This document shows positions 2,037 through 30,315 of a DNA stretch of 64,000 bases, piece by piece (positions within the stretch are counted from its first letter, which is position 1; each line of letters opens with the position of its first letter). A program made the position numbers and the translations under genes. Under the pieces are notes generated by a model. The model had not been told where the DNA came from, did no database searches, and was given only the letters and a program-made list of their open reading frames with translations. The DNA is from Candidatus Amesbacteria bacterium RIFCSPLOWO2_01_FULL_48_25. GTDB taxonomy: Bacteria > Patescibacteriota > Microgenomatia > CAZETR01 > Amesbacteraceae. The stretch is taken from NCBI GenBank assembly GCA_001773695.1, contig MEXN01000006.1, positions 4,136 to 68,135 on the forward strand, read 5' to 3'.

Positions 2037-3260
2037 ATGTTTCGTAAATTATTCTCGCTCCGGTGGCTGTTCCTTTTCGTTATAACGCCCATGGTGTTAA
2101 TCGCCATAGGTGTGTTTCTGTCTTTAGCTAAAATCTATCGCGAGGATGTGAGCTTTCTTACTTTGACATTCGATCACCCCATGTCCCAACTGGTCAGTTG
2201 GAAGACCGGCGAGCTTCTCTCCGGAGAAAAAATAGTAGGACAATTTACAGCCCAGGACGGCTATCTGGGGATCGTTGCCGTCAGGTTCGACAACCTCTTG
2301 AGAATAAACGACGACTGGGTGATTTTTCGGATAAGAGAAAAGGACGCATCTCGGTGGTATTACCAAAATAAATACAAGGTGGATCAATTTCAACCTCACC
2401 AACTTTTCCCCTTCGGGTTTCCTATAATCACGAAGTCTTCCCAGAAAGAATATATTTTTGAAGTCGAATCAGTATTCGGAGTTCCAGGAAATTCAATCAG
2501 CCTTGATCCAGCCTACCCAGTGTTCTCGACCAGGTACAAATACCCCAGGGATCAAATACTGGGAGAGTTGGATGAACTTGATGCATTTCTGCCCAAAAAA
2601 CTAACTAGTCTCAAAACTGACGAACAAGATCTCGCTATTCAAATCAAAACTCTAGTCGGTTTCTTGCAAAAAAAGGCCACAAATTTTGGCAAAGCACAGT
2701 CACAGCAATCCTTATTCGTTAAATACTTCCTAAGGAAAGTTGAAAACATCTTTATTAATGTCAAGCTTTCTCGCTCGGTTGTTTTTTATTTTCTACCGTT
2801 ATTCGTCTACCAATATTGGTTATGGGTTCACTCTCATGTCAAAAGGAAAATTTATTTTCCCGTTTTATTTCCGCTATTAGTAACAATTCTTGAAATATTT
2901 TACCTGCCCACCTCCGACGACTTCGTCACTTTAGAAACAATCATCTTTTGGATAATGATAGTAAGACATTACCAACTAAAAACATCCATACTCATTGGTT
3001 TAGCTTCAGTTTTTTTAATTGCCAGCCCCATTTTACTGGAACTAAATCAGGCAATTTTTGCTGAAAAAACCGGAGCATGGGCATTTCTTCTTCTGTTTAT
3101 AGGAGTGCTGTTTGTAATTGTTAATTACAAAATCAGCTTACGGCAGGAAACAAGCGTTAAGAGATTGACCTACCACCTGATATCTGAAATGAAGAAGATC
3201 ATTCGGCTTCTTTTCCAGATATTTCATCCTAAAAAATCACTTCTTTCGACAAACCACTAG
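2037..3260 (+). CDS. Hypothetical membrane protein (N-terminal TM, soluble domain, C-terminal TM helices)
   Basis: Long ORF with hydrophobic segments; no recognisable family. Confidence 0.4.
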   Translation: MFRKLFSLRWLFLFVITPMVLIAIGVFLSLAKIYREDVSFLTLTFDHPMSQLVSWKTGELLSGEKIVGQFTAQDGYLGIVAVRFDNLLRINDDWVIFRIREKDASRWYYQNKYKVDQFQPHQLFPFGFPIITKSSQKEYIFEVESVFGVPGNSISLDPAYPVFSTRYKYPRDQILGELDELDAFLPKKLTSLKTDEQDLAIQIKTLVGFLQKKATNFGKAQSQQSLFVKYFLRKVENIFINVKLSRSVVFYFLPLFVYQYWLWVHSHVKRKIYFPVLFPLLVTILEIFYLPTSDDFVTLETIIFWIMIVRHYQLKTSILIGLASVFLIASPILLELNQAIFAEKTGAWAFLLLFIGVLFVIVNYKISLRQETSVKRLTYHLISEMKKIIRLLFQIFHPKKSLLSTNH

Positions 3261-3965
3261 ATATCTTACGGGAAAAAAAGAGAATGGGATTCCTTTAATG
3301 TCAACTAATCTCCACCTACTTTCTGAGTCTTTCTTGAAACTTCTCAGGTCATAGGCCCGCAAGTGCCATTCTTCCGTCATGTCTCTGGGAATATTAGGAA
3401 AAAAATAGTTGAACAAGTGTAACTTAATTAACGCGCCTTTGAGATAATTGATCAATGGCTCATTTGGAAAGGTTATTACCATCGTCCCGTTCGGTTTTAA
3501 TACCCGGCATAACTCCTTGAGCATTTTTTTTGGACTCATAACATGTTCAATCACCTCAGAGCATTCAACTTTATCAAAATAATTGTCCCTAACCGGTATT
3601 TTTTCCAAGTCTCCAACTATAAATTTATAATTATTTTGCACTCCCAAATTATCTTTAGCCCTACGGATGGCCTCTTTTGAAATATCAATCAATGAGACCT
3701 CGCCATTTTTTAAGTATCTTTCTATATGTCCTTCTCCACTACCAGCAGCCAAAATTTTGTCCGAGTCTTTTATTGGTAACAGATGATTCAGAAGTTGCTT
3801 AACTCGCATACTTTCTACAAATCGGATTATCAAATTTGGATGATTATAAACCCGCTCGTTATTGTACTTGCAAAACATTTCTTCATTCCATCTTCGAAAA
3901 TTTCTTGTAGTTACTTTGGGATATATGGGAAACTTTGGCATAATATAGGTAATTGTACATCTCAT
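3237..3965 (-). CDS. Class I SAM-dependent methyltransferase
   Basis: Contains 'ILAAGSGEGHIERYL' and 'DKVECSEVIEHV' motifs. Confidence 0.6.
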   Translation of the reverse strand: MRCTITYIMPKFPIYPKVTTRNFRRWNEEMFCKYNNERVYNHPNLIIRFVESMRVKQLLNHLLPIKDSDKILAAGSGEGHIERYLKNGEVSLIDISKEAIRRAKDNLGVQNNYKFIVGDLEKIPVRDNYFDKVECSEVIEHVMSPKKMLKELCRVLKPNGTMVITFPNEPLINYLKGALIKLHLFNYFFPNIPRDMTEEWHLRAYDLRSFKKDSESRWRLVDIKGIPFSFFPVRYLVVCRKK

Positions 3966-5268
3966 GACTAAAAATAACCTCTCCCAATTCTGGCCGCTGA
4001 TTCCAATTGGGCTAACTCAAATTTTCGTTCTTTCCAAAATTCAGTTTACTCCTTGGCCGGAAATGCTTCTTTGGCCCTGGTTAGTAAATCATGGGTGGCT
4101 GCCGTTTTCTGACCTCATCGTCGCCCATGCCCCCTTACTATATACATCTTTAGCTCTTTGGTATCGGGTCATGGGCACAGGATTGGTGTCCTTAAAAATT
4201 TTCACCTGGAGCTATATTTTTCTCACAGCCATTATCCTTTGGGTGATTGCGGCTAAGCAGTCAGGAAAAAAAACAGCTACGATTTCAGTCATTTTCTATG
4301 CACTGCTTCAAACCGTTTATCAAGGAAACGGCATGTGGTTTGACTTAGGCCTGGCCCCCCTAATTCTTTTGGCGTATTACTTCTTAAAATCACGTCAACC
4401 GGTCTTCGCTGGCGTTTTTTTTGCAGTCGCCCTCTTTACCAAGCAAACTGCTTTCTGGCTTATTGTCCCAGTTCTTTTGGAAACAATTATCAGCCGGTCT
4501 ACAAAACGCTTTTTTGTCTCGGTGGCAGCCATATCTCTAATTATTCTTACAGGCCTAGCAGCTACAAGATCCTTAGACAATTTTTACCGTTGGGCGATTC
4601 AAGCGGGCGTGCTTAATCTATCTCGAACTCAATGGCAGTCACAATGGCCGGCGTTATCGTCGGCTACAGCATTTCTTTTTTTGCCACTGGCAGCCGCTTT
4701 TCTTAACCCCCGGTTGGCACCTTGGATCCTCTTTGCCTCCATGGGGACATTTCCCCGATGGGAACTCTTTCATTTTCAACCAGCCATTCCTTTTATAGCT
4801 CTAGGACTAGCCCAAGCCTCTATCAGAAACAAGAGGCTGTTTATTACCTTGCTTGTTCCCTTGTGTCTTTTGTACTTTAAAGTTTTAACTCGGGATTGGA
4901 ACCGCCCCGACAGATTTTTCGACGTCGACACCCTCCTTGCTGCAAAATTCATCCAAGTCTATACCCAACCCCAAGATACACTGTATGTTTTCAACTACTG
5001 GGATCATCTCTACCCCCTCTCTAATCGACTGCCCGCAACACGACCGTTTGTTCCAGGATTCCCGATTTTTTTAAACGCGCCAGGTATTCAGGAAGCTATA
5101 ATTAACAATCTCCAAGATAAACAGCCTCCGTATATAATCTTTCATCCACTTGAAAGCTCTGGTTACGGATCATATCAACCTCAACTTATTTGGAGATTTC
5201 TCACCCAGAATTATTATCTTTATAATAAAATCTCCGATCAGGTATGGGTACTCAAAAGAAACAATTAA
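3964..5268 (+). CDS. Polytopic membrane protein, probable GT-C fold glycosyltransferase (PMT/ArnT-like)
   Basis: At least 10 predicted TM helices with 'FTKQTAFWLIVPVLL'-type segments; sits inside the glycosylation locus. Confidence 0.45.
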   Translation: MTKNNLSQFWPLIPIGLTQIFVLSKIQFTPWPEMLLWPWLVNHGWLPFSDLIVAHAPLLYTSLALWYRVMGTGLVSLKIFTWSYIFLTAIILWVIAAKQSGKKTATISVIFYALLQTVYQGNGMWFDLGLAPLILLAYYFLKSRQPVFAGVFFAVALFTKQTAFWLIVPVLLETIISRSTKRFFVSVAAISLIILTGLAATRSLDNFYRWAIQAGVLNLSRTQWQSQWPALSSATAFLFLPLAAAFLNPRLAPWILFASMGTFPRWELFHFQPAIPFIALGLAQASIRNKRLFITLLVPLCLLYFKVLTRDWNRPDRFFDVDTLLAAKFIQVYTQPQDTLYVFNYWDHLYPLSNRLPATRPFVPGFPIFLNAPGIQEAIINNLQDKQPPYIIFHPLESSGYGSYQPQLIWRFLTQNYYLYNKISDQVWVLKRNN

Positions 5269-6485
5269 AAATATGTATCATCGGCGCTGGCTTTACTGGC
5301 TTGGCCGCGGCTTATTATTTATCCAAAGCTGGGCATCTCGTTGAAGTTTTTGAAAAAGAATCCCAACCCGGCGGCCTAGCCATAGGTTTTCAAGATCCCA
5401 ACTGGGAGTGGCCACTAGAACAACATTATCATCATTGGTTCGAGTCAGATTGGGCTATTCGCAACTTAGCTACCGAGATCGGTCATTCGGTAACTTTCAC
5501 CCGCCCAGTTACCTCGACGTGGATAAACGGCCGGATATCCCAACTAGACTCTCCCATCAGTCTTCTCAAATTTTCTCATCTGTCAATGGAAGCTCGCCTC
5601 CGAACCGCAGTTGGCTTAGCGGGGTTGCGTTTTAACCCCTTTTGGCAGCCTTTCGAATATTTCACTGCCAAAAGTTATATTCGGGCGATTATGGGGGAAG
5701 CTTCTTGGAAGGATTTGTGGGAACCATTGTTTGTCGGTAAATTCGATAAATATGCTGGGGACATATCTGCAGCGTGGCTCTGGGCCAGAATTTACAAGAG
5801 AAGCCCGACCTTGGGTTATCCAGAAGGCGGATTTCTCTCATTTGCCAAATCTTTAGAACTTGCAGCCATAAATTATGGAGCCAAATTCTATTATCATCAC
5901 CCAGTCAGTCACATCAACGAACTTTTGCCGCAGTTTGACAAGGTTATCTGCACCTTGCCAACGCCCCTATTCGAAAAAATTTCCGGCCTGACCTACCCCA
6001 AATTAGAAGGCATCGGGGCAGTTAATCTAGTCCTCGCCCTCAAACACCAATTTCTCACCGACGGATCTTATTGGTTAAATATCAATGATCGAAAAATGCC
6101 TTTCCTGGCCGTTGTCGAACACACCAACTTTATTGAGCCGAAACACTACGGCGGCGAACATTTGTTATATGTAGGCAACTACTTACCCTCCAATCACGAG
6201 TTTTTCCGGCTTTCAGAAAATGACCTTGTCCAAAAATTCTTGCCTTATTTAAAAATGATTAGCCCCAAATTCACCCAATCATGGATTAGAAAATCTTGGG
6301 CTTTCAAGGCTCCATTTGCTCAACCCATAATAACTAAAAACTACTCCCAGCTCATTCCTCCTCTCTCTACCTCCATCTCAAATCTCTACCTCGCGAATAT
6401 CCAGCAAGTCTACCCTTGGGACAGAGGCACTAATTATGCCGTAGAATTAGGGCGACAAGTAGCAGACTTATGTTTAAAAAAATAA
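5244..6485 (+). CDS. FAD/NAD(P)-binding oxidoreductase (amine-oxidase / protoporphyrinogen-oxidase-like Rossmann fold)
   Basis: N-terminal dinucleotide-binding motif 'ICIIGAGFTGLAAAYYLSKAGHLVEVFEKESQPGG'. Confidence 0.6.
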   Translation: MGTQKKQLKICIIGAGFTGLAAAYYLSKAGHLVEVFEKESQPGGLAIGFQDPNWEWPLEQHYHHWFESDWAIRNLATEIGHSVTFTRPVTSTWINGRISQLDSPISLLKFSHLSMEARLRTAVGLAGLRFNPFWQPFEYFTAKSYIRAIMGEASWKDLWEPLFVGKFDKYAGDISAAWLWARIYKRSPTLGYPEGGFLSFAKSLELAAINYGAKFYYHHPVSHINELLPQFDKVICTLPTPLFEKISGLTYPKLEGIGAVNLVLALKHQFLTDGSYWLNINDRKMPFLAVVEHTNFIEPKHYGGEHLLYVGNYLPSNHEFFRLSENDLVQKFLPYLKMISPKFTQSWIRKSWAFKAPFAQPIITKNYSQLIPPLSTSISNLYLANIQQVYPWDRGTNYAVELGRQVADLCLKK

Positions 6486-27372: not shown

Positions 27373-27918
27373 GTGAATTCGTACTCGGACGAGGGGATTA
27401 TCATTAAAAGGTCTAACTTCGGCGAGGCGGGCAAGCTAATTACAGCATTTACCTCAAATCATGGCAAGGTCACGCTCAAAGCTATTGGCATTCGCAAGAT
27501 CTCGTCCAAACAGGCGGGTTCTCTGGAGCTATTTAATCACATTAAATTTCACGCTGTTCAAGGCAGGGGAGAACTGGAAGTTCTAACCGAAGTTCAACTT
27601 ATCGAATCCCACCCTTCTTGGCGAAAGCACTTAGGGCGCATCACCCTCGCCTTCCAGCTTTGTGAAGTTATCGATAAACTTACGCCCGACCACCAACCCC
27701 ACCCCGAAATTTTCGAAATCCTGAAAAGCTCCCTTTTGGAAATTGGAAATTTAAAAATTGACTGGAAATTGAAAATTGAAAATTGGAAATTAGAGATACT
27801 CCGGGAACTCGGTTACTGGTCGAAAGAGCAGGAGTTTCAAAGCGACATCGATAAATATATGGAGGAGTTGATAAACCGCCCTCTCCACTCCCCCAAACTC
27901 CTGTCTAAGCTAAAGTAA
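27373..27918 (+). CDS. recO: DNA repair protein RecO (short form)
   Basis: 'EGIIIKRSNFGEAGKLITAFTSNHGKVTLKAIGIRK', a RecO N-terminal OB-fold pattern. Confidence 0.6.
   Translation: MNSYSDEGIIIKRSNFGEAGKLITAFTSNHGKVTLKAIGIRKISSKQAGSLELFNHIKFHAVQGRGELEVLTEVQLIESHPSWRKHLGRITLAFQLCEVIDKLTPDHQPHPEIFEILKSSLLEIGNLKIDWKLKIENWKLEILRELGYWSKEQEFQSDIDKYMEELINRPLHSPKLLSKLK
27738..27795. repeat. Heptamer tandem array (gaaattg/aaattga, about 8 copies) inside recO
   Basis: 'ggaaatt ggaaatt taaaaat tgactgg aaattga aaattga aaattgg aaattag'. Confidence 0.7.
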
Positions 27919-28315
27919 ACACCGTTTTGAAGTTTTCGAAGCAGACTTTGATTCTTTCTATACAATGCAATCTTCCCAAGAGTGGTGGGACAAAACTGTC
28001 ATTCAAAAAACCCAGCCTAATATTGCTTTCCCAATCTCCCAGTTTTACTTTCCATAACTCTTTTAGTACAAAAACCAGTTGTTTACCTCCCACACCGCTA
28101 GTAAAAAAACGATTACAGTCCTTTTTAACATCCACCCCTAGTTTCGAATACAACCACAATGGCAGCAAGGTGTAATCCGCACCCGTATCCACAATCATTT
28201 TCACCGGTACCCAATCGTTTAGTGTCTCTGACCAAAAACCAACATCGGCCACTGGACGCCTGATTGTCCCCAAAATTCCCGTTTGTTGCACTTCAAACGG
28301 AAAACTTATTTGCAT
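27905..28315 (-). CDS. Retropepsin-like (clan AA) aspartic protease
   Basis: Catalytic 'MIVDTGADYTLLP', flap 'TSGVGGKQ', and a C-terminal 'LLGRL' matching the retropepsin GRD/GRN motif. Confidence 0.7.
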   Translation of the reverse strand: MQISFPFEVQQTGILGTIRRPVADVGFWSETLNDWVPVKMIVDTGADYTLLPLWLYSKLGVDVKKDCNRFFTSGVGGKQLVFVLKELWKVKLGDWESNIRLGFLNDSFVPPLLGRLHCIERIKVCFENFKTVFTLA

Positions 28316-28503
28316 ACCAAAATCAGAGATTGTGCTTTGGGTACAAATGTCACAGTGGGTATCATCCCAGTCTCTTTGACCAACTTGTCAAAAAGCCTCG
28401 ATGCTTCATTAGCCGTTTTAACTGCGTAAACATTTTGGTTCACCACCAACACATGCTTTCCTTGGTACTTGGGATTGTTAAACAACGACTTTGTTCCTTT
28501 CAT
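28306..28503 (-). CDS. Small hypothetical protein (65 aa), translationally coupled to the downstream protease
   Basis: Its last 10 nt overlap the protease start ('ATGCAAATAA'). Confidence 0.35.
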   Translation of the reverse strand: MKGTKSLFNNPKYQGKHVLVVNQNVYAVKTANEASRLFDKLVKETGMIPTVTFVPKAQSLILVCK

Positions 28504-28552
28504 AACTTTATCTTACCACGCCTCCTCCATTCCCCCAAGCTTCTTGACAAGC

Positions 28553-28984
28553 TCAAGTGAGTTTCTTCATCAGCTCAGCAGCCGCTGGAAGAATTGCTTG
28601 AGCTAGTGATAATCGTTTGATTTCGCCTGCTTCACGCCAAAGGATATAGGGCGCACCTGTTATCACCCCAGTGAGCGTTAGTACGGTCAGCTCGCCCACA
28701 GCCTCCACACCAACTCCTCTTTTCTGAGCAAGTTCAATTAGTTGATTATGTGTCGTGACCACATCTTTCACCGCGGCTTTACTTTCTCCGTCCATAGCCT
28801 GCTCCTCCAATTCCGCCTCAACCCTTCTGGGAATCGATTGCCCCAGAGTGGCATATGCTATCGCCAACACTTCAGCAACGGTGGGAGACCCCGACTGCCT
28901 TGGGTGAATCTCTTCTCCCAGTGGCCTATCCAAGAATTTCCTTTCTTCAACTGCCATGACCCGATTATAGACCAGGTTCATCAT
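28553..28984 (-). CDS. Hypothetical protein (143 aa), first gene of the minus-strand island
   Basis: ORF with no recognisable motif; local GC is slightly higher than the flanks. Confidence 0.4.
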   Translation of the reverse strand: MMNLVYNRVMAVEERKFLDRPLGEEIHPRQSGSPTVAEVLAIAYATLGQSIPRRVEAELEEQAMDGESKAAVKDVVTTHNQLIELAQKRGVGVEAVGELTVLTLTGVITGAPYILWREAGEIKRLSLAQAILPAAAELMKKLT

Positions 28985-29010
28985 CTGTCAAATTCTGGTA
29001 GAATTACTCT

Positions 29011-30315
29011 GTGGATTTAATGGAAAAAATCGTTAGTCTGTGCAAGAGGAGGGGATTTGTGTATCCCGGCTCCGAAATCTACGGCGGTCTCAACGGGACT
29101 TGGGACTTGGGGCCTCTGGGCACATCATTGGCCAGAAACATTAAGCACGAATGGTGGAAGAGTACTGTAACACAACGAGATGACGTAGTAGGCCTTGACT
29201 CATCGATCCTTCATCACCCTAAAGTCTGGGAAGCTTCCGGCCACATAGCATCTTTCACTGACCCACTAATAGAATGCAAAAAATGCCACAATCGATTTAG
29301 ATTTGGATACGATCCTATAACAATATATCTCGACAAAGAAAAAGGTAAATATTGGATATGTCCCACATGTCATGAAAACAATTCCGGCGAACCAAGAGAT
29401 TTTAACCTGATGTTCAAGACATCATTGGGATCGGTCGAAGAAACAGCAACGGAACTATATCTAAGACCGGAAACAGCTCAGGGAATTTTTATTAATTTCC
29501 TTAATGTTATTAACTCTACCCGAGTGACAATCCCATTTGGTATCGCCCAAATTGGCAAGGGTTTTAGAAACGAGATTACCACTGGTAACTTTCTCTTCCG
29601 GGTCCGTGAATTTGAGATGATGGAACTGGAGTTTTTCGTCAAGCCAGGAACCGACAGCGAGTGGTTCATAACCTGGAAACAAGAAAGGCTAAATTGGTAT
29701 CTAAATCTGGGTGTGAATAAATCTAAAATCAAATTGGTCGATTTACCCAAAGAAGAAATAGCTCATTACTCCAAAGGTACGTCGGAAATCTGGTATGACT
29801 GGCCATTCATGGGTTGGGGAGAGCTCGAAGGTATCGCCAATCGCGGCGACTATGACCTGACCCAACATTCAAAACATTCCGGAAAATACCTAGTCTACGA
29901 CGACTACACTCCTTATGTAATTGAACCTTCGGTCGGTGTTGGCCGCGCCATGTTGGCCTTTCTTGTGGACGCCTATTCCGAAGTAGGGGATCGGGTCATT
30001 CTGAAACTCCACCCCCGGCTCGCCCCTCATAAAGTCGCGGTATTTTCCCTAGTCGCCAACAAAGAGGAACTAGTCCAAAAAGCCAAATCTCTCTATCTCT
30101 CTCTCAAATCTCAGTTCCCCGCAGTCTGGGACGACCGAGGTAATATTGGCAAGCGTTATTACGCCCAGGACGAAATCGGCACCCCCTGGTGCGTTACCGT
30201 CGACTATCAGACACTTGAGGATGATACTGTCACTGTTCGTGACCGCGACACCGCCCAGCAAGAACGCGTTTCAATCTCCCAACTTGACACTTATTTTGCT
30301 CAAAAGTTAAAGTAG
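29011..30315 (+). CDS. glyQS: Glycine--tRNA ligase (alpha2 dimeric type)
   Basis: 'MEKIVSLCKRRGFVYPGSEIYGGLNGTWDLGPLG', a canonical GlyRS N-terminus. Confidence 0.85.
   Translation: MDLMEKIVSLCKRRGFVYPGSEIYGGLNGTWDLGPLGTSLARNIKHEWWKSTVTQRDDVVGLDSSILHHPKVWEASGHIASFTDPLIECKKCHNRFRFGYDPITIYLDKEKGKYWICPTCHENNSGEPRDFNLMFKTSLGSVEETATELYLRPETAQGIFINFLNVINSTRVTIPFGIAQIGKGFRNEITTGNFLFRVREFEMMELEFFVKPGTDSEWFITWKQERLNWYLNLGVNKSKIKLVDLPKEEIAHYSKGTSEIWYDWPFMGWGELEGIANRGDYDLTQHSKHSGKYLVYDDYTPYVIEPSVGVGRAMLAFLVDAYSEVGDRVILKLHPRLAPHKVAVFSLVANKEELVQKAKSLYLSLKSQFPAVWDDRGNIGKRYYAQDEIGTPWCVTVDYQTLEDDTVTVRDRDTAQQERVSISQLDTYFAQKLK

Follow-up and report, generated by a model that had tools for sequence, protein, structure and literature searches.

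Single-lobe retropepsins must homodimerise to form one active site, and they classically process their own polyprotein neighbours. Among prokaryotic proteins of this kind, APRc (RC1339) of Rickettsia conorii is membrane-embedded (PMC4140852), the Rlo enzymes of Pseudomonas are bacterial retropepsins connected with stress tolerance (PMC11957051), and small retropepsin proteins accompany type III CRISPR loci in Sulfolobales (PMC3973734). PADLOC also holds a phage-defence candidate, PDC-M08, a cassette of the form FAM_03167>>FAM_00414 that was inferred from its embedding in defence systems (Payne et al. 2024, bioRxiv 10.1101/2024.01.29.577857). The window analysed here is the whole stretch of 64,000 nucleotides (nt) from Candidatus Amesbacteria bacterium RIFCSPLOWO2_01_FULL_48_25 (contig MEXN01000006.1, positions 4,136 to 68,135). 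Its minus strand carries three open reading frames (ORFs) of 136, 65, and 143 amino acids (aa) between recO and the glycyl-tRNA synthetase gene (glyS). An earlier note, made from the sequence alone, had described them as a three-gene island encoding a retropepsin-like protease. We favour a different reading, in which the region consists of two things, an exchangeable two-gene cassette and an unrelated orphan gene, and in which the cassette encodes a toxin-antitoxin-like or defence-like pair; we put its probability at roughly 45%. The features of the pair are as follows.

27905-28315, minus strand: retropepsin-like aspartic protease, 136 aa, with a single DTG lobe (PF13975 and PF13650, motifs, AlphaFold2 model, Foldseek).
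28306-28503, minus strand: DUF5678 small partner protein, 65 aa (PF18929, orthologous partners).
28306-28315, minus strand: 10-nt overlap of the DUF5678 stop and the protease start, ATGCAAATAA (ORF coordinates).
28510-28515, minus strand: -10-like hexamer TAAGAT, 6 nt 5' of the DUF5678 ATG (read from the sequence).

The 136-aa protein is a genuine clan-AA retropepsin-like aspartic protease. It passed the Pfam gathering scores of PF13975 (gag-asp_proteas; 32.9 bits against 28.2) and PF13650 (Asp_protease_2; 32.7 against 24.3), and it carries the motifs MIVDTGADY, SGVGGK, and PPLLGRL. In an alignment of the window protein with 58 relatives (59 sequences), DTGAD (residues 43-47), G74/G76/G77, and PPLLGR (110-115) were invariant or nearly so. 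The conserved residues listed were D43, T44, G45, A46, D47, G74, G76, G77, P110, P111, L112, G114, and R115; T44 was conserved in at least 90% of the sequences, and D43, G45, A46, D47, G74, G76, G77, G114, and R115 were invariant. The AlphaFold2 (AF2) model built on this alignment had a predicted local distance difference test score (pLDDT) of 94.4 and a predicted template modelling score (pTM) of 0.85. Among its best Foldseek matches was Rickettsia APRc (5c9d_B; template modelling score, TM, 0.67/0.74). The Foldseek probability was 1.0 for APRc and for the proteases of the human, simian, and feline immunodeficiency viruses (HIV, SIV, and FIV) and human T-lymphotropic virus (HTLV; HTLV-1 2b7f, TM 0.60/0.68). 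There were 206 PDB matches at E≤0.001, and the best 50 of these 206 were all APRc or retroviral proteases. Profile scores, motifs, and fold thus agree with the full retropepsin architecture seen by the earlier note, and similarity to the retropepsin fold, the lack of which it had named as grounds for abandoning its reading, was strong. One detail was misread: the C-terminal motif given as GRD/GRN is G-R-L, the residue after G-R being L and not D or N. The invariant motifs and the confident fold predict a catalytically intact enzyme.

The window protease shares with APRc and the retroviral proteases (MEROPS clan AA) the single-lobe fold, the D-T-G-A psi-loop, the glycine-tipped flap hairpin, and the G-R motif. 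Because it has only one DTG lobe, dimerisation should be required for activity, as established for retropepsins, and an obligate dimer is predicted here as well. However, it is only 14-23% identical to these proteins, has neither a membrane anchor nor a polyprotein context, carries extra N-terminal beta-hairpins (strands 2-6 and 8-12), and is always paired with DUF5678. No signal peptide or hydrophobic segment was seen in the N-terminus (MQISFPFEVQQTG...), as judged from the sequence and the AF2 model and not by a dedicated predictor; the model has beta-strands from residue 2, with a pLDDT of 96. Since it lacks a signal peptide and a membrane segment, the protease should be cytosolic, unlike APRc. 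The TIGR02281 and TIGR03698 families and the CRISPR-associated Asp_prot of Sulfolobales (Saci_1895) are likewise small stand-alone prokaryotic retropepsins of ~100-140 aa, some of them defence-linked (PMC3973734). The earlier note had suggested TIGR02281 and TIGR03698 alongside Asp_protease_2 as possible assignments; only the last held, since the window protein reached 13.5 and 13.1 bits against the two TIGR models, far below their cut-offs of ~57-58, and the best E-values among the 59 relatives were only 7.6e-6 and 4.8e-7. By these profile scores, the subfamily is separate from both. Nor are bacterial clan-AA proteases rare and functionally uncharacterised, as had been stated: APRc and the Rlo enzymes have been characterised, and for the DUF5678-linked family alone, a word-indexed search returned 325 protein clusters and a single peptide pattern returned 215 confirmed metagenome protease loci.

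The 65-aa protein matched PF18929 (DUF5678) with E=5.8e-5, a marginal pass at 23.3 bits against a gathering score of 23.2, and 21 of the 28 orthologous partners were assigned to the same family, with E-values as low as 3e-8. The 65-aa protein has a basic N-terminus, a beta-beta-alpha-beta core, which was taken from a single-sequence model, and a conserved hydrophobic C-terminal tail (..P.(A/S)..LIL..). That AF2 model had a pLDDT of 79, which fell below 50 in the tail (residues 59-64). In 81 of 84 protease loci, a small ORF (65-89 aa) on the strand of the protease ended within a few nucleotides of the protease start, and the three loci without it include contig ends. The overlap was most often 10 nt, but overlaps of 1, 4, 7, and 11 nt and gaps of up to 26 nt also occurred among the 84 loci. 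By phmmer, 80 of 82 upstream small ORFs were homologous to the window 65-aa protein, and one relative comes from Candidatus Ratteibacteria. The 10-nt overlap noted earlier is confirmed, and it points to translational coupling of the two genes.

In most modules, a -10-like hexamer lies 6-9 nt 5' of the ATG of the small ORF. The geometry is TAAGAT-N6-ATG in the window and in metagenome contig L040, TATCAT-N6-ATG in L038 and L032, and TTGACA-17-TATCAT-6-ATG in L113. The TAAGAT of the window was not called by a strict consensus promoter scan. From this arrangement, we infer that the pair probably has its own leaderless or near-leaderless promoter. Across ~50 loci, the 148 flanking proteins fell into 139 Pfam families, none of which occurred more than four times, and they were mostly housekeeping proteins (gyrase, DnaB, tRNA synthetases, and penicillin-binding proteins). 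Because flanking families never recur beyond this and are mainly housekeeping, no conserved third gene, recurrent recombinase, or defence-island context is seen among these 148 proteins. The one neighbourhood of mobile- or toxin-like character noticed in the called gene tables is on L013 (4364-4732, 9791-10411, 2308-3243), where a protease module has type IV secretion system (T4SS)-pilin-like genes and a Fic-domain gene beside it. These results suggest that the conserved unit is very probably two genes, DUF5678 followed by the protease, and that the island is composite. We found nothing on a DUF5678-retropepsin pairing in the literature searched.

Two other arrangements were considered for the pair and rejected. 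A programmed frameshift fusion of the Gag-Pro kind does not fit, since frames and overlaps vary and no fused protein appeared among the 120 homologues listed, and a split counterpart of Ddi1, in which a ubiquitin-like domain is joined to a retropepsin, does not fit because there were no beta-grasp matches.

The two proteins diverge together. Their pairwise identities were correlated over 43 modules (r=0.79; Mantel test, 0 of 2000 permutations), and the small partner evolves faster, with a mean identity of 41% against 52% for the protease. Strict linkage and co-divergence would also be expected if DUF5678 were a precursor or pro-peptide cleaved by the protease, so that the two form a maturation pair and not an addiction module. 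The conserved, hydrophobic, and predicted flexible tail could then be the cleavage site, in keeping with the established processing of polyprotein neighbours by retropepsins. The partner, however, is only ~65-75 aa, consists of one compact domain, and has no obvious cargo peptide; no export or modification genes are associated with the pair; and in one lineage, described below, the protease has been lost and the partner kept, which is unexpected if the partner is useless unprocessed. We consider a maturation pair unlikely.

A direct repeat that is absent from the earlier account brackets exactly the two-gene pair.

27877-27918, plus strand: direct repeat copy 1, the functional recO 3' end, RPLHSPKLLSKLK* (repeat comparison).
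28519-28560, plus strand: direct repeat copy 2, a relic recO 3' end, RLLHSPKLLDKLK* (31/42 nt against copy 1).
27373-27918, plus strand: recO, a flanking housekeeping gene whose 3' end is the likely insertion point (TIGR00613, E=1.2e-27).

The 42 nt that encode the RecO C-terminus recur on the far side of the pair, where the relic lies 16-55 nt upstream of the DUF5678 start; copy 1 overlaps the last protease codons on the opposite strand, the protease ORF sharing 14 nt with the recO 3' end. When both strands of the 64-kb window were compared, the 31 identities ranked first; the runner-up had 24, and 300 shuffles gave at most 25. Six of the eight changed codons are synonymous (stop-to-stop counted), and the relic matches the recO ends of other Amesbacteria species at 27-32 of 42 positions. 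Because the changes are mostly synonymous and the divergence is like that of other species' recO ends, the relic appears to be a recO end that accumulated its changes at a time when it was coding.

The same bracket was found by a six-frame motif search in a distant lineage (L039/L040; RecO 60% identical), in which the L040 relic SPLHSPKLLSKLK* lies at 2724-2765, 33-74 nt upstream of DUF5678, and is identical to its own recO end at 34 of 44 nt. A second kind of relic, I(K/E)FKIQKLLSKLR*, occurs at L032 4500-4541, L033 4726-4767, L037 4296-4337, L038 3710-3751, and L041 830-871. In L032, L033, L038, and L041, it lies downstream of recO, just after an inserted gene of ~100-133 aa (for example, L032 4103-4504 and L038 3863-4168); contig L037 ends before recO. 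By a rough estimate, ~0.03 chance matches to the relic motif are expected in the sequence searched. These results suggest that, in Amesbacteria, various gene cassettes may have inserted repeatedly at the recO 3' end, and insertion of the window cassette at that end is likely. Integrative elements at gene 3' ends are likewise bracketed, by attL and attR; here the brackets are two diverged copies of the last 13 codons and stop of recO, the bracket is seen in two divergent lineages, and the locus accepts other cargo. The window cassette differs from such elements in its size of 0.64 kb, in encoding no integrase, and in that neither an excised form nor a clean empty site was observed.

The ancestral synteny, as read from the contigs compared, is DUF4012-recO-glyS-orf165, and recO directly abuts glyS in L021, L022, L024, and L026. 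L117, which comes from the same aquifer, was the nearest relative identified: its RecO is 81% identical as a protein, and the end of the gene is 92% identical in nucleotides. Its collinearity with the window stops at 27917 and resumes at 29012, and the 313 bp in between are unrelated filler instead of a clean empty recO-glyS site. The synteny of the relatives and this break support the earlier claim that the ORFs were inserted between recO and glyS. A 93-aa ORF overlaps the recO end of L117 (4038-4319, minus strand); it is unrelated to the orphan and may be spurious. The gap between recO and glyS holds a 181-aa PaaX_M/Cas2-like protein in L027 (4614-5159; PF20803, E=3e-19; PF09827, E=9e-7) and, in L020, a 295-aa protein with no assigned function (4568-5455) together with a homologue of the orphan.

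Six or more further Amesbacteria lineages (RecO 60-73% and protease 70-83% identical) carry the DUF5678-protease pair itself between recO and glyS. The closest RecO relatives, L117 (81%) and L020 (79%), are without the module, more distant ones carry it, and its distribution on a rough recO tree is patchy. The proteases of L032 and L041 share a nonsense codon (W95) and are both deleted at the N-terminus; DUF5678 is intact in both. L037 holds tandem modules (3001-3402 and 3629-3988), one intact and one a decayed copy of the L032/L041 type; the intact module is 77% identical to the decayed one, in which DUF5678 is also 5'-truncated. In one other lineage, at least four unrelated contexts share a block of ~750 bp at >99% identity, whose sharp breaks fall 52-56 nt 5' of the small ORF and 77-110 nt beyond the stop codon of the protease. 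The patchiness, decay, tandem copy, and multi-context block indicate a discrete cassette that is gained, lost, replaced, and exchanged, with the caution that the contexts come from metagenomes.

Beside these copies (L017 1255-1395; L016 5453-5521 and 8112-8204; L019 5453-5521), the ~70-nt right flank of the >99%-identical cassette was seen to be the sequence downstream of a tRNA-Ile(GAT) gene, and it occurs a second time on L016 near a serine-recombinase (Resolvase) gene. This flank could be a repeat element or an attachment sequence.

Occupation of one locus in at least six lineages, under purifying selection and at 70-83% protease identity, could also be read as mostly vertical inheritance of an ordinary accessory cellular protease with a regulatory or adaptor subunit, active for example in stress proteolysis and lodged in a variable intergenic region. 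The known bacterial retropepsins do have cellular roles (APRc, PMC4140852; Rlo stress tolerance, PMC11957051). Such a protease would not be expected to be missing from the closest relatives, to be pseudogenised in one lineage and replaced there by a new tandem copy, or to occur as identical cassettes in unrelated contexts, and the window protein, unlike APRc and Rlo, has no signal peptide or membrane anchor. An accessory protease therefore appears quite unlikely.

The third ORF, which the earlier note had joined to the pair, belongs to other features, given here with the gene beyond it.

28553-28957, minus strand: orphan gene, 134 aa in its most likely form; extending the open frame to 28984 gives 143 aa (one homologue, own promoter).
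28964-28991, minus strand: sigma-70 promoter TTGACA-16-TATAAT (12/12 consensus matches).
29011-30315, plus strand: class II glycyl-tRNA synthetase, a flanking housekeeping gene (domain search; abuts recO in relatives).

As the earlier note had it, the 143-aa ORF has no recognisable domain; searches of Pfam, NCBIfam, PADLOC, and PHROG gave no match. Homologues were sought in 5.8 billion clusters, with an exhaustive HMMER scan of 1.84 billion representatives, and the only one was P0235, a 134-aa gene of another Amesbacterium (L020 5452-5856). The promoter, read from 28991 to 28964, falls within the annotated start region of the 143-aa ORF, and 6 nt separate its end from ATG 28957. Because the promoter stops there, and the only homologue is also 134 aa long, the orphan is most likely a leaderless 134-aa gene starting at ATG 28957. 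Its -10-N6-ATG geometry is like that of the DUF5678 gene.

In the three-gene island first proposed, the 143-aa protein would be a partner or substrate of the protease. The three genes do share a strand, the gaps between them are short, and no terminator is predicted there, so read-through from the strong promoter at 28991-28964 is possible. By contrast, the family of the 143-aa protein has two members among the 1.84 billion representatives, its sole homologue adjoins glyS next to the different 295-aa gene with no protease module, and the gene is missing from every one of the 84 other protease loci examined. The relic recO end, which overlaps the orphan's stop codon, separates it from the pair, and its GC content of 0.505 differs from that of the pair (0.409; window mean, 0.442). 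The slightly elevated GC attributed to the island, whose overall value (0.452) is close to that of the window (0.442), is confined to this ORF. The neighbourhoods of relatives therefore bear out the pairing of the protease with the small ORF and not its extension to a third gene. The three-gene island is largely refuted and very improbable, and the 143-aa gene is an unrelated, lineage-specific orphan outside the protease cassette.

In layout, the pair resembles type II toxin-antitoxin systems: the two genes are small, adjacent, co-oriented, overlapping, and strictly linked, the smaller and faster-evolving one comes first, and the unit is self-contained, with a probable promoter of its own. It shares with these systems a patchy distribution with copies in varied and unrelated contexts, as well as an effector that has decayed in one lineage in which the partner was kept. 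Of the options listed in the earlier note (a processing system, a toxin-antitoxin-like unit, or a defence element), the toxin-antitoxin or defence option fits best, once the three-gene module is set aside. The partner differs from type II antitoxins in that it has no helix-turn-helix (HTH), ribbon-helix-helix (RHH), or AbrB-type DNA-binding domain. No toxin-antitoxin family is known to use an aspartic protease toxin, and none was found in the literature searched.

The mechanism that we propose runs as follows. A cassette of ~0.64 kb (27917-28558) would comprise its own short promoter, DUF5678, and the coupled cytosolic retropepsin; the bracketing recO terminus would be the signature of site-specific or single-crossover integration, and the recO-glyS interval would be a hot spot holding different cargo in different Amesbacteria. 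Homodimerisation of the protease would form one active site and thereby a potentially harmful effector, which the co-translated DUF5678 protein would bind and keep in check. The tail of DUF5678 is a plausible pseudo-substrate or interface strand because it is conserved, hydrophobic, and predicted to be flexible. The pair would then act as a toxin-antitoxin-like or abortive-defence-like addiction module with an aspartic protease as its effector. We offer this toxin-regulator mechanism tentatively, the odds being somewhat against it. A broader version appears doubtful when taken whole: DUF5678 and its retropepsin would be a new, widespread toxin-antitoxin or abortive-defence family, the first with an aspartic-protease effector, which spreads among candidate phyla radiation (CPR) and other uncultured bacteria in units of 0.65-0.75 kb, each reaching from its own promoter to slightly beyond the stop codon of the protease, and which in Amesbacteria integrates at the recO 3' end, with the terminus regenerated and the recombinase supplied in trans.

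An anti-phage system related to PDC-M08 is a further possibility, in which a protease activated by infection would degrade phage or host proteins and DUF5678 would be its sensor or regulator. The window protein matched the profile hidden Markov model of PDC-M08 component B with E=5.5e-7, as did 59 of 59 relatives (best E=1.4e-10), and nine relatives matched PDC-M52B. PDC-M08 has the same two-gene A>>B layout with the retropepsin-like protein second and is embedded in known defence systems; small retropepsins accompany type III CRISPR loci in Sulfolobales (PMC3973734); and patchy distribution with rapid turnover would suit a defence function. The resemblance, however, is through the protease only, and the PADLOC match is limited to the generic catalytic core (residues 39-97). 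PDC-M08 is itself a candidate only, and among the 148 flanking proteins, the DUF5678-protease modules are neither near nor within defence systems. A PDC-M08-like defence system is thus improbable.

Several observations weigh against a mobile toxin-antitoxin-like or defence-like pair. None of the 28 DUF5678 partners matched PDC-M08A at E≤0.1, and no other PADLOC model was matched by DUF5678 either. No beta-grasp fold and no DNA-binding antitoxin fold (HTH, RHH, or AbrB) was recognised in DUF5678, and its model had no significant structural neighbour in the PDB or among viral structures. Housekeeping genes, and neither defence islands nor mobile elements, flank the modules, and a useful function in the cell could likewise explain why several Amesbacteria lineages have kept the module at one locus. 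No integrase or recombinase lies within the 0.64-kb unit, where only two ORFs stand between the repeats, and no convincing flanking direct repeats were found around modules elsewhere (L007, L011, L013, L016, L035, and L036). No copies on phages, plasmids, or viruses were found in IMG/VR (one pattern), INPHARED, or PLSDB, and PHROGs gave no match. Finally, the near-identical copies in different contexts stem from metagenome assemblies, in which some joins could be chimeric.

The surroundings of the cassette were also compared. The 181-aa length of RecO is kept across Amesbacteria, and the named RecO homologues come from Candidatus Amesbacteria or from unclassified Microgenomates/Patescibacteria (CPR), the closest (79% identity) being from an Amesbacterium. 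The same gene set occurs in the same arrangement on many Rifle-aquifer metagenome contigs, and a search of the 64-kb window for second copies showed only one module. The three minus-strand ORFs are antisense to the flanking genes at the coordinates first reported. Three imperfect copies of TTGGAAATTGGAAAT, a short direct repeat, encode the segment WKLKIENWKL within recO (27736-27790).

The observation holds and the family occurs widely; the function is one that we infer. If the pair is only an accessory protease, what follows is a corrected annotation: a two-gene unit, a leaderless orphan of 134 aa, and a relic recO end. The mobile-element biology of CPR bacteria is poorly known, and the duplication of the recO end with its nested cargo points to an unrecognised site-specific route of gene-cassette insertion in these organisms. 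Should the pair prove to be an addiction or defence module, aspartic proteases would join the effector repertoire of such systems in a very compact form of ~200 codons, and a function would be given to DUF5678 and to a large, unannotated family of prokaryotic retropepsins.

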